Shown here: piece by piece, positions 2,915-30,357 of the stretch
How positions within the stretch are numbered: the stretch's first letter is position 1
How the letters are laid out: every line of letters begins with the position of its first letter
Virus record (IMG/VR): IMGVR_UViG_3300021961_000023
Direction: 5' to 3' (one strand)
Length of the DNA stretch: 64,000 nucleotides
Origin: a virus
Notes under the pieces: generated by a model
Seen by the model: the letters and a program-made list of their open reading frames with translations, nothing else
The model's database searches: none
Told to the model about the DNA's origin: nothing
Position numbers and translations under genes: made by a program

Positions 2915-3241
2915 ATGGGAAAGCATTATTTACTAAACCTTTATGGTTGTTCCTTTGTCCTTTTGGATGATGAGCGTAGTCTCATAGATTTATTAGAAAA
3001 TGCTGCTGTTGCTAGTGGAGCAACAGTTATTCAAACCATTTCAAAAAAGTTTGATCCTCAAGGAGTTACTGTCATTTGTCTATTGTCAGAAAGTCATATT
3101 AGCATTCATACATGGCCAGAAGAAGGTAAAGCAGCAGTTGACGTTTATACTTGCGGCGATTGCAACCCAAAAATTGGGTGTGATATAATCATTCAACAAC
3201 TTTATGCTACGAATCATACCTTGAGTTATATCGAAAGGTAA
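2915..3241 (+). CDS. speD: S-adenosylmethionine decarboxylase proenzyme
   Basis: MGKH...LSESHISIHTWPE...AAVDVYTCG, including the pyruvoyl cleavage motif ESH. Confidence 0.95.
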   Translation: MGKHYLLNLYGCSFVLLDDERSLIDLLENAAVASGATVIQTISKKFDPQGVTVICLLSESHISIHTWPEEGKAAVDVYTCGDCNPKIGCDIIIQQLYATNHTLSYIER

Positions 3242-3597: not shown

Positions 3598-3600
3598 GTG

Positions 3601-3629
3601 TTGACAAATCCAGAGATCCCGACTAGATT
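3601..3629 (+). promoter_or_regulatory. Sigma70-like promoter
   Basis: TTGACA-17 nt-TAGATT (a TATAAT also lies at 3635). Confidence 0.55.
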
Positions 3630-3651
3630 CATATTATAATACTATTAGATT

Positions 3652-3846
3652 ATGGAATACAAACCTTACTCTCCAGAATGGCATAGAAAAAGGATCTTGA
3701 AAGAAGCACTTGATCAGTATTTTAATGCGTATGTAGATAATGATGTTATCTATGAGGATCTAATGAGTATATTGCATGAAAGATCTGAGGCAGCATATAA
3801 AATATTTCAGAAAACTGTAGAACTAGAATCAAAGATATATTCTTAA
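3652..3846 (+). CDS. Hypothetical protein
   Basis: 64-aa ORF, YKPYSPEWHRKR. Confidence 0.7.
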   Translation: MEYKPYSPEWHRKRILKEALDQYFNAYVDNDVIYEDLMSILHERSEAAYKIFQKTVELESKIYS

Positions 3847-3883
3847 ATTAATATAAAACTGTAACATTTACAACAGTTTCGTC

Positions 3884-3912
3884 TTGCTATATAGGATGAA
3901 TAGGAGTATACT
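3884..3912 (+). promoter_or_regulatory. Sigma70-like promoter for the riboswitch/DUF4278 transcript
   Basis: TTGCTA-17 nt-TATACT ending 10 nt before the first CGTTC. Confidence 0.6.
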
Positions 3913-3922
3913 AATCTCCTAA

Positions 3923-4166
3923 CGTTCATCCTATGACTAAGGCACTTTTGCTCTTGGCATGGGTTCCACTTTTTACCGTTTCAACGCCACAACCAGAATC
4001 ATTTCCAGTGAGTATAAGTTGTGACGCAGCGTGGGAACTAATGGACATCGTTAAAAACAACGATGTAACAAATCAAAAAATGGAAGACCGATTGCTACTA
4101 GAACTCCGAAAGGATGTAGTTCAGAGGTGCTAACTTAATAGGACGGAAGTAAGCCGACTCGGAACG
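3923..4166 (+). ncRNA. Glutamine riboswitch-like motif 1 (glnA/Downstream-peptide type) with ~200-nt coding loop
   Basis: P1 CGTTC(3923)/GAACG(4162); P2 TCCTAT(3929)/ATAGGA(4138); core CGGAAGTAAG. Confidence 0.7.
3933..4133 (+). CDS. Small possibly secreted C-x35-C protein nested in riboswitch motif 1
   Basis: 66 aa; hydrophobic N-terminus; paralog of 4179..4334. Confidence 0.7.
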   Translation: MTKALLLLAWVPLFTVSTPQPESFPVSISCDAAWELMDIVKNNDVTNQKMEDRLLLELRKDVVQRC

Positions 4167-4169
4167 GGA

Positions 4170-4341
4170 CGTTCATCTATGGAACTACTTTTTTTAACTT
4201 GTGTTCAAGCAAACTTTCTTATTAGTCGAGTGTTGGTTCATAAAGATTTAAACCCACAACAGCGTAATGAGATTGTTTGGGAGATTAAACAAGTTACAAA
4301 AAAAGGTTGTTTTATAGACGCAAAAGCCGACTGAAGGAACG
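4170..4341 (+). ncRNA. Glutamine riboswitch-like motif 2 (Downstream-peptide type) with ~130-nt coding loop
   Basis: P1 CGTTC(4170)/GAACG(4337); P2 TCTAT(4176)/ATAGA(4314); core CGCAAAAGCCGACTGAAG; directly upstream of a DUF4278 gene. Confidence 0.75.
4179..4334 (+). CDS. Small C-x35-C protein nested in riboswitch motif 2 (51 aa)
   Basis: MELLFLTCVQANFLISRVLVHKDLNPQQRNEIVWEIKQVTKKGCFIDAKAD; ungapped similarity to 3933..4133. Confidence 0.65.
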   Translation: MELLFLTCVQANFLISRVLVHKDLNPQQRNEIVWEIKQVTKKGCFIDAKAD

Positions 4342-4372
4342 CTCTTTAACCTAACACTTAAGGAGAACCCTA

Positions 4373-4510
4373 ATGTCTAAAGTCGTTTATCGCGGTGTTG
4401 AATACGATACGCAAAAGCGTTTAGAGTATCAACAGCAGATGATGCAGCAACCCCAACAATACAACGAAACCTATCGTGGTGTTAAGTATGTAAAGGAGGG
4501 GCATAAATGA
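4373..4510 (+). CDS. DUF4278 ('downstream peptide') protein, 45 aa
   Basis: AGGAG RBS; two YRGV motifs (VVYRGVEY, TYRGVKY). Confidence 0.88.
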   Translation: MSKVVYRGVEYDTQKRLEYQQQMMQQPQQYNETYRGVKYVKEGHK

Positions 4511-4608
4511 ATACTTACTTCGTTCGATATCTTAAAAGAAAAGCAAAGAAGGAACAACTTCTTCACATTGCACAAGTAAATATGGCGAAGCAACCACAAG
4601 TTGCTTGA
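4507..4608 (+). CDS. Small basic peptide, 33 aa
   Basis: GGAGG RBS, ATGA overlap; MNTYFVRYLKRKAKKEQLLHIAQVNMAKQPQVA. Confidence 0.6.
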   Translation: MNTYFVRYLKRKAKKEQLLHIAQVNMAKQPQVA

Positions 4609-4611
4609 TAC

Positions 4612-4638
4612 AAAGGAGGTTGATCCCCTCCTTTTTTT
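4612..4638 (+). terminator. Intrinsic terminator overlapping a downstream promoter
   Basis: aaaggagg...cctccttt stem plus T-run; TTGATC(4620)-17-TATAAT(4643) overlaps it. Confidence 0.75.
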
Positions 4639-4669
4639 ATGGTATAATGACTAGAGATAATAATATCTC

Positions 4670-4837
4670 ATGGATAAAAATAAACTTAAAGTTTTAGTTG
4701 AAAAACTAAAAAAACTTGTCAGTGAGTTAGAATCTGAGATATACTCAGATGTAAGTGCTTACACAAATAATCAAAGTATTCCTATTATGGATTACGATGA
4801 AGTTTTCTATGGCGACGACGACGGTTACCCTGATTAA
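4670..4837 (+). CDS. Hypothetical protein (55 aa)
   Basis: MDKNKLKVLVEKLK...ELESEIYSD...DYDEVFYGDDDGYPD. Confidence 0.75.
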   Translation: MDKNKLKVLVEKLKKLVSELESEIYSDVSAYTNNQSIPIMDYDEVFYGDDDGYPD

Positions 4838-4840
4838 TCT

Positions 4841-5560
4841 ATGAACTCAATTGTTAAACTTATTTCTGTAACTCAAGGTGCAGGAGATCTTGCAGGTAAA
4901 TCTGCACAAGAAGTGATTACATACACGGCTCGTGTAAGTAATCCAAACAATCAACTTAACTTTGATACTGCTGCTGGATTACTCCGCTACTGTATCAAAC
5001 AAAATCACTGGTCGATTTTTGAGCAGGCAGATATGACTCTGGAGATTAATACTACTAGAGGTATCGCAGCTCAAGTGCTTCGTCATCGTTCATTTACATT
5101 TCAAGAATTTTCGCAAAGGTATGCAGATACAAAACTTCTGACTGAACTACCTGAAGTTCCTGAACTTCGTAAACAAGATGAAAAGAATCGTCAAAACTCA
5201 ACGAATGATCTTGATGATCATACGAGAGAAAAGTTTGAGGGTATGATTGAGCAGCACTTTGAAGAGGCACAACGTCTTTACGATAAGATGCTTGAGAAGG
5301 GCGTGGCAAAGGAATGTGCAAGGTTTGTGCTCCCCCTGGCAACCCCTACAAGGATCTACATGAAGGGCTCTGTAAGGTCATGGATCCACTACATCGATCT
5401 TCGATCTGCCCATGGTACTCAGAAGGAGCATATGGACATTGCAGAGGCAGCACGATGCGTCTTCATCTGTCAATTCCCCGACATTGCCAAAGCACTTGAA
5501 TGGACTAAATCTGAAGATTGTCCAGAATGTTCTGATGCTCCATCACTCATAATCCCCTAA
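4841..5560 (+). CDS. thyX: Flavin-dependent thymidylate synthase
   Basis: HWSIFE and RHRSFTFQEFSQRY ThyX motifs. Confidence 0.96.
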   Translation: MNSIVKLISVTQGAGDLAGKSAQEVITYTARVSNPNNQLNFDTAAGLLRYCIKQNHWSIFEQADMTLEINTTRGIAAQVLRHRSFTFQEFSQRYADTKLLTELPEVPELRKQDEKNRQNSTNDLDDHTREKFEGMIEQHFEEAQRLYDKMLEKGVAKECARFVLPLATPTRIYMKGSVRSWIHYIDLRSAHGTQKEHMDIAEAARCVFICQFPDIAKALEWTKSEDCPECSDAPSLIIP

Positions 5561-5839: not shown

Positions 5840-6592
5840 ATGACAAGAAAGAGAAAGACAGATCATCCTATTGGTGTAGGTATGACGGCAAAACAAATGA
5901 AACGCAGAAAACCACTTAACAGTGAGTTGTTGGTTGACGTTCAACCGTTAACAGTCAATCAGAAGAACTTCTTCGAACAATATGAAGACGAAAAGCAAGT
6001 CATTGCTTATGGTGCTGCTGGAACAGGCAAAACATTCGTTGCACTTTACTTAGCACTTAGAGATGTTCTTAATGAAAACACTCCTTACGAAAAAGTTTAT
6101 ATCGTTAGGTCTCTTGTTTCTACTCGTGAAATTGGGTTTCTTCCTGGTGATCATGAAGACAAGTCCTCACTTTATCAGATTCCTTACAAGAACATGGTAA
6201 AGTATATGTTTGAGATGCCATCAGACGCAGACTTTGAAATGCTCTATGGAAATCTTAAAACTCAGGAGACGATTAAGTTTTGGTCCACGTCTTTTCTACG
6301 TGGAACAACTCTTGATAATGCAGTGATTATTGTTGATGAGTTCCAAAACTTGAACTTTCATGAACTTGATAGTATAATCACTCGTGTTGGTGAAAATAGT
6401 AGAATCATTTTCTGTGGTGATGCTACTCAAACTGATTTAATCAAAACAAATGAAAGAAATGGAATCATTGATTTCATGAATATTTTACGCAAAATGGAAT
6501 CGTTTAGTCTGATTGAGTTCGGCATCGATGACATTGTTCGTTCTGGACTCGTAAAAGAATATCTCATTGCAAAACAGGAATCTGGAATGTGA
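5840..6592 (+). CDS. phoH: PhoH-family ATPase
   Basis: GAAGTGKT, IGFLPG, RGTTLD, DEFQN, GDATQTD. Confidence 0.96.
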   Translation: MTRKRKTDHPIGVGMTAKQMKRRKPLNSELLVDVQPLTVNQKNFFEQYEDEKQVIAYGAAGTGKTFVALYLALRDVLNENTPYEKVYIVRSLVSTREIGFLPGDHEDKSSLYQIPYKNMVKYMFEMPSDADFEMLYGNLKTQETIKFWSTSFLRGTTLDNAVIIVDEFQNLNFHELDSIITRVGENSRIIFCGDATQTDLIKTNERNGIIDFMNILRKMESFSLIEFGIDDIVRSGLVKEYLIAKQESGM

Positions 6593-7269
6593 ATTTTAAC
6601 TTTATTAATACTGAGTTACCTCAACTTGAACGTGAAACAATCGATGGAGTCAGGTACTACAAAGTGCCTGACAATGGTGAACTTTTAAAACTTGTATCAA
6701 TCACTTCTATTACTAGTCACTTTAATAAAGATATATTTGTTAAGTGGAGAAAAAAGGTTGGTAATGAGGAAGCAGAACGTATCACAAAAGCGGCAACGAG
6801 TCGTGGAACTGATATGCATACTTTGGTAGAAAACTATCTCTCTAACCAAAATCTTCCACCAGTTCAACCTTTATCAGATTTCTTATTTAAGATTGCAAAA
6901 CCAGAACTCAATAAGATAAATAACATACGTGCTCTTGAAGGTTCTCTCTATAGTAAACAGTTAGGTATCGCAGGTACAGTGGACTGTATTGCTGATTATG
7001 ATGGAGAACTTTCAATCATAGACTTCAAAACATCTAAGAAACCCAAACCACGAGAGTGGATTGAACACTACTTTGTTCAATGTATGGCATATGGATGTAT
7101 GTTATATGAACTGACTGGCATCCCAGTCAAAAAACTTGTAATCATCATGGCTTGTGAAAATGGAGAATGTGTCGTCTATGAAGAACGAAACAAATCAAAG
7201 TACATCAAACTACTCACCCAATACATTAGAAAGTTTGTTGGGGATAAACTGGAACAATATGGAAAATGA
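6589..7269 (+). CDS. PD-(D/E)XK exonuclease (RecB/Cas4-like)
   Basis: RGTDMH, AGTVDCIA, IIDFKTS, Q..AY. Confidence 0.9.
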   Translation: MNFNFINTELPQLERETIDGVRYYKVPDNGELLKLVSITSITSHFNKDIFVKWRKKVGNEEAERITKAATSRGTDMHTLVENYLSNQNLPPVQPLSDFLFKIAKPELNKINNIRALEGSLYSKQLGIAGTVDCIADYDGELSIIDFKTSKKPKPREWIEHYFVQCMAYGCMLYELTGIPVKKLVIIMACENGECVVYEERNKSKYIKLLTQYIRKFVGDKLEQYGK

Positions 7270-29052: not shown

Positions 29053-29134
29053 GCTCAAGTGGCGGAATTGGTAGACGCGCTGGGTTTAGGTTCCAGTAGA
29101 TTTATCTGTGGGGGTTCAAGTCCCTTCTTGAGCA
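29053..29134 (+). tRNA. tRNA-Leu(UAG)
   Basis: Acceptor GCTCAAG/CTTGAGC, anticodon TAG, long variable arm, TTCAAGT T-loop. Confidence 0.93.
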
Positions 29135-29142
29135 CTCTTTAT

Positions 29143-29213
29143 GCGGGCATGGTGTAGCGGTAACACGCCATCCTTCCAAGTTGGAATCACGGGTTCGATC
29201 CCCGTTGCCCGCT
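29143..29213 (+). tRNA. tRNA-Gly(UCC)
   Basis: GCGGGCA/TGCCCGC acceptor, anticodon TCC, U73. Confidence 0.93.
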
Positions 29214-29292
29214 TTCCAAAAATGAAGTTTAGTTTCATTTTTGGTCGAAAAAATTTCCCCAGAAATTTTTGCCCTATTACTTTTTTCAAAGT

Positions 29293-29499
29293 ATGAATCC
29301 TTACAAAATCAATAAGAACGCATTAGTAGAAGTGCCTGTAAAGACAACCCCTGATAATGTTCGTGAAGCAAATGAAGGATTATTTCATGCAAAGATGACT
29401 CTACCTGCTGCTGCAAAACATTGTGGGATGACACAAAAAGAAATGAAGTTGACATTCTTTGAGTATCTGAAGTATAATCCTAAAACCTACGAGGGTTGA
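29293..29499 (+). CDS. Hypothetical protein (possible HTH-like)
   Basis: MTLPAAAKHCGMTQKEMK. Confidence 0.7.
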   Translation: MNPYKINKNALVEVPVKTTPDNVREANEGLFHAKMTLPAAAKHCGMTQKEMKLTFFEYLKYNPKTYEG

Positions 29500-29505
29500 T
29501 TTTTT

Positions 29506-29578
29506 GGGAGTGTAGCCCAGCGGAAGAGGCAGTGGACTTAAAATCCATCCAGGGTGGGTTCGAATCCCACCACTCCTA
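29506..29578 (+). tRNA. tRNA-Leu(UAA) with short variable loop
   Basis: GGGAGTG/CACTCCT acceptor, anticodon TAA, TTCGAAT T-loop, A73. Confidence 0.88.
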
Positions 29579-29616
29579 TTCTCTGTTATAAATAAAAAAC
29601 AGAGTTATAGTCCGTT

Positions 29617-29979
29617 ATGCTATTCAACGAATGCACCAATAGTCAATCTCAAGGTAATGTTGGTATGGGGCAAGCAATTGCTCACTACACTCAAAAAGGA
29701 TATACTGTTAGTATTCCTTTAAATGATTGCCAAGAGTATGATTTGGTTGTAGAATACCCTGACGGATTAAAAAAAGTTCAAGTAAAAACGACAAAATCAA
29801 AAGCACAATCTGGAAAATACGTTGTTGGATTACGCACTATGAGTGGGTATAAAGACAAATATTCTTACAAGATTGGTTCTTATGATATTTTGTTTGTAGT
29901 TACTGAACTTGGTAAAACATATGAATATACTTCAAAACAACTTGAAGGATATAAAAATTGTATTACCTTACCTATCTGA
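29617..29979 (+). CDS. Free-standing PD-(D/E)XK endonuclease (I-Ssp6803I/PDDEXK_5-like)
   Basis: G..G...A..Y...GY.VSIPL.D...YDLVV...KVQVKT; TATAAATA at 29587. Confidence 0.85.
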   Translation: MLFNECTNSQSQGNVGMGQAIAHYTQKGYTVSIPLNDCQEYDLVVEYPDGLKKVQVKTTKSKAQSGKYVVGLRTMSGYKDKYSYKIGSYDILFVVTELGKTYEYTSKQLEGYKNCITLPI

Positions 29980-30014
29980 GGTTCTACCCCTAAATAATCA
30001 AAAATAGGTTATCT

Positions 30015-30284
30015 ATGAAATACCGCATAGATACTGCTTACTGCTGGTACAACAGAGGAAAAGAGATTGTTTTAATGTATTTCATTGAAAATATCCCTTT
30101 TACATTTGATGAACTACCACACAAAGACATGTATACAACTGATATGGTAGAATCAGCAAATAAAAACCTAATGTATGAACCAGAAGACCTCTATCAAAAC
30201 TCATATTATTTGATTTTAGAAGAGTGTCATCCACTTATGTTTGAGTTAGATCTGGAAAATCCAGAGTTACTACCTGTAGATTAA
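30015..30284 (+). CDS. Hypothetical protein
   Basis: IVLMYFI..IPFTFDEL...EECHPL. Confidence 0.75.
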   Translation: MKYRIDTAYCWYNRGKEIVLMYFIENIPFTFDELPHKDMYTTDMVESANKNLMYEPEDLYQNSYYLILEECHPLMFELDLENPELLPVD

Positions 30285-30285
30285 T

Positions 30286-30357
30286 GCCCTTGTAGCTCAG
30301 TGGTAGAGCAACGGTTTTGTAAACCGTTGGTCGCTGGTTCAAATCCAGTCGGGGGCT
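30286..30357 (+). tRNA. tRNA-Thr(UGU)
   Basis: Canonical cloverleaf, anticodon TGT. Confidence 0.93.

Follow-up and report, generated by a model that had tools for sequence, protein, structure and literature searches.

The 64,000-nucleotide stretch of DNA analysed here (IMG/VR virus record IMGVR_UViG_3300021961_000023; the window in what follows) comes from a T4-like cyanomyovirus (Kyanoviridae), and its region 3600-4700 is closest to Synechococcus phages S-SRM01, DSL-LC02 and DSL-LC03 and to Prochlorococcus phage P-SSM4. Positions 3923-4341 hold two glutamine-riboswitch-like units, in each of which the P2 hairpin encloses a whole open reading frame (66 and 51 codons); a DUF4278-like gene lies downstream of the double unit. 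Every coordinate assigned to these elements in the initial annotation matches the sequence and the ORF list. The neighbours of the locus are genes for S-adenosylmethionine decarboxylase (2915-3241; PF02675, E 1e-34) and ThyX (4841-5560; PF02511, E 1e-43), and four tRNA genes are clustered at 29053-30357. The features of the locus are as follows.

3884-3912, + strand: sigma-70-like promoter, TTGCTA-17-TATACT (TTGACT...TATAAT at the same place in relatives)
Unit I, + strand: CGTTC 3923-3927, A3928, TCCTAT 3929-3934, ATAGGA 4138-4143, CGGAAGTAAGCCGACTCG 4144-4161, GAACG 4162-4166
3923-3927, + strand: P1 5' strand CGUUC, invariant in 134/136 double units; in the interlaced model the outer P1, with 4337-4341 as partner
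3929-3934, + strand: P2-I 5' strand UCCUAU, which includes the A and U of the ORF1 start codon
3933-4133, + strand: nested ORF1, 66 aa, hydrophobic N-terminus, Cys30 and Cys66
4138-4143, + strand: P2-I 3' strand AUAGGA, paired in the unconstrained minimum free energy (MFE) fold
4144-4161, + strand: unit I core CGGAAGUAAGCCGACUCG; the Gln-I counterparts of G4145 and G4146 are the triple-forming G22 and the linchpin G23
4162-4174, + strand: GAACG-GGA-CGUUC, the candidate inner P1 as a local hairpin, formed in the MFE fold; G4167 is the proposed linchpin partner of C4321
Unit II, + strand: CGTTC 4170-4174, A4175, TCTAT 4176-4180, ORF2, ATAGA, CGCAAAAGCCGACTGAAG 4319-4336, GAACG 4337-4341
4176-4185, + strand: P2-II 5' strand UCUAUGGAAC, which holds the entire ORF2 start codon
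4179-4334, + strand: nested ORF2, 51 aa, Cys8 and Cys44, ending in DAKAD, with its stop in the core
4309-4318, + strand: P2-II 3' strand GUUUUAUAGA, inside the final ORF2 codons
4319-4336, + strand: unit II core CGCAAAAGCCGACUGAAG; C4321 is the linchpin base and the ORF2 stop UGA is at 4332-4334
4337-4342, + strand: GAACG (candidate outer P1 3' strand) and C4342, the proposed linchpin partner of G4146 and first anti-Shine-Dalgarno base
4342-4365, + strand: hairpin sequestering the Shine-Dalgarno sequence, CUCUUUAA (4342-4349) with UUAAGGAG (4358-4365), in the MFE fold; relatives have the same tail
4373-4510, + strand: DUF4278/IF17-like gene, 45 aa, two YRGV motifs
4507-4608, + strand: basic ORF, 33 aa, overlapping the DUF4278 stop (ATGA) and conserved in S-SRM01
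4612-4641, + strand: intrinsic-terminator-like hairpin (4612-4634) and T run, the operon end

A promoter-like site at the 5' end and a terminator-like hairpin after the 45-aa and 33-aa ORFs make the whole stretch one small operon, and the predicted start of its transcript likely lies a few bases 5' of the aptamer. The -10 box TATACT falls within the loop of an inverted repeat (TAGGAG/CTCCTA, 3901-3921), the stem of which covaries in relatives (GGAG/CTCC, GGGG/CCCC, GAGG/CCTC); in this it resembles the promoter-early stem-loops found next to mobile cassettes of T4-type phages. The context of a DUF4278-type gene, which had been named from the sequence, is supported: the 45-aa ORF at 4373-4510 matches phrog_5049 (E 2e-10), and its match to PF14105 (DUF4278) is weak (E 7e-4, 20.3 bits), under the gathering cutoff of 25.3.

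Within the double unit, the loops closed by P2 are 203 and 123 nt long, and the P2-II pairing reaches 10 bp (4176-4185 with 4309-4318). P2-I, P2-II, the GAACG-GGA-CGUUC hairpin and the Shine-Dalgarno hairpin are all included in the unconstrained MFE fold of 3912-4400 (z = -3.4). The 3' core pattern AAGCCGACN{2,4}GGAACG occurs twice in the window, compared with 0 occurrences in 100 shuffles. Neither core is canonical: unit I is without GAAG before GGAACG, and unit II is without GGAAGUA.

An Rfam scan of the window yields no glutamine match to RF01739 or RF01704 at the gathering threshold or even at E 10. That covariance scans would miss aptamers split in this way had been anticipated, and they do; since hit length is limited and the units span 172-244 nt, the missing match is not counted against the element. 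Natural short-loop homologues were used in place of an in-silico loop deletion. At the homologous position, DSL-LC02, DSL-LC03, S-SRM01 and S-CREM1 have the same flanks around a short P2 hairpin, and they match RF01739. Short-loop relatives with cores identical to those of the window score 35.0-37.2 bits for unit II and 35.6 bits for unit I (cutoff 35), and the published annotation of S-CREM1 assigns its entire 99-nt double unit to the glnA riboswitch, with a score of 44. The proposal that the window contains halves of glutamine-riboswitch aptamers split by real coding ORFs is borne out.

The correspondence to Gln-I extends to P1 and P2. Both P1 strands, CGUUC and GAACG, with the C1:G59 and G2:C58 pocket pairs, occur twice in the window and are identical in 134/136 double units; P2 is directly flanked by CGUUCA and CG, and it covaries. 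The window units have no P3 hairpin between E-loop strands AGUA and GAA; of these two strands, unit I has AGUA alone and unit II GAA alone. The 2-bp mini-stem drawn by Infernal is without covariation. Two candidate pairings, a mini-P3 (AG-CCGA-CU) and one of GCCGAC with the DUF4278 start region, were dropped for the same lack of covariation. The H-type pseudoknot of RF01704 (CGUUC, hairpin, CGC, then GGAACG in the downstream P2 loop) has a different order of strands and finds no match in the window; marine relatives reach ~25 bits with this model, for which the cutoff is 33.

The arrangement is widespread among phages. Two pattern scans of viral contigs yielded about 136 double units, 70 of them distinct, in which a type I core (CG[G/C]AAGUA..GCCGAC..GGAACG) has, with few exceptions, a type II core (CGCA....GAC.[G/A]AAGGAACG) 3-6 nt downstream of it; in the viral double units a Shine-Dalgarno sequence and a DUF4278-type gene come next. 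The spacer between the units is 3 or 4 nt in 42/42 parsed tandem pairs, with a few of 5-6 nt among the variant-core units. The length of the P2 loop is bimodal in the 136 double units, at either 2-18 nt or 114-212 nt, and the unit I-unit II combinations are short-long in 52, short-short in 43, long-long in 24 and long-short in 17. At least one nested gene is found in 93/136 sampled double units. P-SSM4 has the long-long form, like the window, and a manA RNA (RF01745, 184 bits; L004 722-907) lies ~90 nt upstream of its nested glutamine element. One locus (L123, ~6504-6830) has an array of three units (short, long, short) rather than two. For hosts, the nested form was not found among the inspected matches of a pattern scan of 401 cyanobacterial genomes, these matches being coding sequence (miaB, KADSER), and a scan of genome contigs gave only chance matches among those listed.

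Pairing of the P2 strands across the intervening genes is conserved and covaries, as the initial annotation required of a genuine aptamer. Because a MAFFT alignment of whole units gapped the P2 5' strand, the conserved flanks served to anchor the register in which pairs were counted, and the counts used helix positions that had played no part in picking the units. In type II long units P2 is paired, with four pair types, in 57/59 and 55/59 distinct cases, compared with 8-40 of 59 when the partner is slid; in type I long units it is paired in 29/32, 32/32 and 27/32 cases, and shuffled controls have far fewer P2 pairs. The helices extend up to 14 bp and are made of the first and last codons of the ORF. 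P2-I, with its 6 bp, has 203 nt to bridge and may not form well in cells that are translating.

The start codons of the nested genes are part of these helices. AUG1 (3933-3935) has two bases in P2-I, AUG2 (4179-4181) lies wholly within P2-II, and none of GGAG, GAGG, AGGA and AAGG occurs 4-14 nt upstream of either. What had been noticed in the window, starts in P2 without Shine-Dalgarno sequences, is general among its relatives: at least one AUG base is in the P2 helix in 95/104 distinct long units, and an SD-like motif upstream of the nested AUG is found in 0/104. A variant nested ORF at L077 (2091-2327), with an AGGAGG of its own and an AUG that lies 21 nt inside the loop, is the sole unit seen with a Shine-Dalgarno sequence. 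The stops are placed differently in the two units. That of ORF1 (4131-4133) is 5' of the P2-I 3' strand; that of ORF2 (TGA, 4332-4334) is in the core, and 65/68 type II units stop at this same core position (GAC-UGA/UAA-AGG). In S-SRM01 the ORF2 stop has been lost and the ORF continues through an unchanged core, which places the conservation there at the RNA level.

The loop ORFs are genes under selection, as had been conjectured. An intact ORF of 49-69 codons occupies 113/117 long loops, and median pairwise dN/dS, with the codons overlapping the RNA core trimmed, is 0.34 for the ORF1 family and 0.51 for the ORF2 family, indicating purifying selection. Both families have an invariant pair of cysteines, 35 residues apart, after a hydrophobic N-terminus. 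Alignment of the two families by hhalign (E 3e-5, probability 73%) aligns both cysteines; ORF1 and ORF2 are thus probably paralogues, and the nested ORFs constitute a single Cys-x35-Cys helical-hairpin family. The AF2 model of ORF2 is a two-helix hairpin (pLDDT 87), and that of ORF1 is of the same kind but weaker (pLDDT 68.5). Searches for named relatives gave little: ORF1 and ORF2 have no match in Pfam, ORF2 matches only phrog_504 (a family of unknown function), Foldseek finds only generic two-helix matches in the PDB for the ORF2 model (E above 1), and an Atlas search with that model finds only unnamed clusters. Metagenomes contain 492 members of the family, none of them named. At 80/80 loci selected through the ORF1 protein the start codon has the CGTTCATCCT-ATG flank, and the 3' core is present at every untruncated one; across very divergent phages the ORFs have diverged to <30% identity while the core and P1 bases have stayed nearly invariant. 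The present analysis shows the architecture and that it is conserved, as well as the covariation and the ORFs' coding status.

How the two units are joined is judged here largely from one base pair. In both classes of glutamine riboswitch the ligand-dependent linchpin is a Watson-Crick pair, G23:C60 in Gln-I and C19:G41 in Gln-II (PMC6698751, PMC11477058); when Gln-I binds glutamine, G23, which follows the junction CG, is placed opposite C60, which follows GAACG (PMC6698751, PMC11477058). The two units of the window had been taken as independent tandem aptamers, each with its own P1 (3923-3927/4162-4166 and 4170-4174/4337-4341) and one ORF in each P2, and with the same mutual exclusion of folding and translation. 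Here that proposal fares badly, because the within-unit linchpin combinations are mismatched (G4146.G4167 and C4321.C4342) and the cross-unit combinations are Watson-Crick (G4146:C4342 and C4321:G4167). Among the relatives, the unit I base and the base after the unit II GAACG are complementary in 136/136 double units, and the unit II base and the base after the unit I GAACG in 128/136, compared with only 57/136 and 56/136 for the within-unit combinations; in the window and in 72/136 units both within-unit linchpins are mismatched (G.G, C.C) and both cross-unit linchpins are G:C. Read across the units, the window also presents the Gln-I consensus CGGAAGUA...GAAGGAACGC, which neither unit alone has in both its parts: unit I is always without the 3' GAAG, and unit II always without the 5' GGAAGUA. 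A nearly always ordered pair of two unit types, 3-6 nt apart, likewise speaks against simple tandem repetition. Together, the within-unit mismatches and the cross-unit complementarity make it more likely that the sensors are interlaced, one inside the other, with the outer P1 probably formed by 3923-3927/4337-4341 and the inner P1 by 4162-4166/4170-4174.

The simple tandem has its own points. Rfam aligns the short-loop relatives in just this way, at gathering score; tandem glnA RNAs have been described (PMC2864571); the marine allele (C,G,C,G) and a rare G,C,G,C allele have Watson-Crick linchpins within the units; and its constrained energy is equal to that of the interlaced fold, nearest-neighbour energies of -124.3 and -124.4 kcal/mol for the two topologies not discriminating between them. 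Most of the support for interlacing comes from a single widespread allele (G,G,C,C); the marine allele suits both topologies. On the ORF1 tree, the two outer linchpin bases change together twice on well-supported branches and 10 times on the best tree; block inheritance could be part of the cause. With the linchpin mismatches weighed in, two self-contained aptamers are an unlikely arrangement, though the main rival, and interlaced sites are the preferred reading. A slightly less probable idea is that P2 loops are merely permissive sites, which tolerate insertions and in which gene cassettes have landed, or have recombined by way of the aptamer flanks, so as to share the promoter without any regulatory coupling. 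An identical 9-bp short hairpin, TTCGCTATT/AATAGCGAA, serves as P2 sometimes in unit I and sometimes in unit II, depending on the phage (in one unit type at L003, L028, L072 and L074; in the other at L013, L088, L103, L112 and L115), which suggests that P2 modules have been exchanged by recombination between conserved flanks, and such exchangeability, the occurrence of every combination of short and long loops, and the AGGAGG and deeper AUG of L077 would all suit passive hitchhiking. So would a promoter in a stem-loop presumably like those of mobile early-promoter cassettes in T4-type phages. Its difficulty is the intimacy of gene and aptamer: the Shine-Dalgarno sequence is missing from all 104 distinct long units and the AUG is inside P2 in 95 of them, the type II stop is fixed in the core, P2-II builds 10-14 bp from the first and last ORF codons, which exceeds the need of an aptamer, and every ORF1 homologue from the protein search is nested. 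That the ORF insertions have destroyed the aptamers, leaving their flanks as sequence relics or as protein-coding or recombination signals, accords with the lack of an Rfam match in the window and with the departure of the cores from consensus; it is very improbable in view of core and P1 bases that outlast the divergence of the ORFs between them, of covariation in P2, and of the core sequence that S-SRM01 keeps despite the loss of its ORF2 stop.

The reading preferred here, with a probability of about 0.6, is that the 5' leader of this small cyanophage operon is a double glutamine aptamer in which both P2 hairpins have been expanded around translated small genes and in which the sites are most likely interlaced. 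Glutamine binding, the interlaced topology and the direction of regulation are inferred. The outer site would consist of CGUUC 3923-3927 with GAACG 4337-4341, P2-I, the CGG of the unit I core and C4342; the inner site would consist of GAACG 4162-4166 with CGUUC 4170-4174 (the local hairpin), P2-II, the CGC of the unit II core and G4167. With the nested AUGs in P2 helices that abut the glutamine pockets, and without Shine-Dalgarno sequences, the folded, glutamine-clamped RNA is proposed to block initiation at these codons; conversely, ribosomes on ORF1 or ORF2 would keep the P2 strands separated, so that the pockets could not form. This mutual exclusion, by which glutamine would hide the nested start codons and ribosomes would melt the aptamer, was proposed in the initial annotation and is plausible as a hypothesis. 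In known glutamine riboswitches the hairpin stems form without ligand, and occlusion of the nested AUGs may accordingly be independent of glutamine.

The downstream gene would respond in the opposite sense. C4342 is both the first base of the hairpin that hides the Shine-Dalgarno sequence and the outer linchpin partner; glutamine binding should therefore weaken that hairpin, and by pulling C4342 away would turn on translation of the DUF4278 gene. The prediction fits the published ON behaviour of these elements upstream of DUF4278/IF17 genes: in cyanobacteria, glutamine riboswitches turn DUF4278-type genes on (PMC6212724). A ribosome terminating at the UGA at 4332-4334 would cover the outer P1 3' strand and the anti-Shine-Dalgarno sequence. 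The outcome would be a reciprocal switch, with nested Cys-x35-Cys proteins made at low glutamine and IF17-like protein at high glutamine. It is a tentative step, and a somewhat doubtful one, from there to a two-output riboswitch in which the interlaced pockets, one of them circularly permuted, form only when both internal genes are free of ribosomes, and in which glutamine locks these genes off and the IF17-like gene on. If this is true, a single RNA integrates the state of translation with the level of a metabolite, in hundreds of cyanophages.

Known systems supply the parts but not the assembly. With Gln-I (the glnA motif, RF01739; the Synechocystis gifB leader, PMC6212724) the window shares the CGUUC/GAACG helix, a hairpin that starts immediately 3' of CGUUCA, the glutamine-contacting CG(G) junction bases and a 3'-terminal GAAGGAACGC, as well as a DUF4278/IF17-like gene downstream, a sequestered Shine-Dalgarno sequence and a place at the 5' end of the transcript. 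It differs from Gln-I in its protein-coding P2 loops of 203 and 123 nt, in being without a canonical P3, and in a consensus split over two units, which are probably interlaced and are missed by the Rfam model. With Gln-II (Downstream-peptide, RF01704; 6QN3, PMC6698751) it shares the pocket bases: the unit II core starts with CGC, and a G follows the unit I GAACG, as in C19:G41. That a two-piece Gln-II riboswitch binds glutamine (PMC6698751) indicates that split strands can work. Unlike Gln-II, the inner site of the window has GGAACG 5' of CGUUC, a circular permutation, and lacks an H-type pseudoknot with its P2 downstream. Tandem riboswitches (tandem glnA RNAs, the glycine riboswitch) likewise have a pair of ligand sites a short, fixed distance apart in a single leader, but here the units are dissimilar, their order is constant, their strands are probably exchanged and there are genes inside them. 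Leader-peptide attenuation and translational coupling offer the precedent of a short upstream ORF, translation of which sets the RNA fold that controls a downstream gene; the present ORFs, however, are conserved folded proteins rather than codon-sensing leaders, and they lie inside the ligand-sensing domain. A full-text search of the literature, which covered part of the primary papers, found no account of a glutamine aptamer that houses a gene, nor of glutamine aptamers that interlace.

The usual view of a riboswitch aptamer is that of a compact domain without coding sequence, and search methods assume as much; nested-gene aptamers are invisible to standard annotation, though common in cyanophages. 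The aptamer class described here is a natural one in which entire genes within a structural hairpin are tolerated and probably put to use. It provides a testable model for the coupling of metabolite sensing to translation of internal ORFs, what would be a natural example of strand-swapped, partly circularly permuted ligand sites, and an entry point to the question of how cyanophages sense the nitrogen status of the host while they express an IF17-like protein, a candidate glutamine synthetase regulator.

The core UGA is also the junction between ORF2 and the downstream gene. In the window a second stop follows ORF2, and the frames of ORF2 and the DUF4278 gene differ. Unlike the window, one marine subclade (L007; proteins P0056, P0067, P0075 and P0080) has the two in-frame, separated by nothing but the core UGA; where TGA is taken as Trp, gene callers give ORF2-DUF4278 fusions of 106-114 aa (DAKAD-W-RNG...MAQVTYRGV), and readthrough of the UGA from ORF2 into the DUF4278 gene is conceivable in that subclade.
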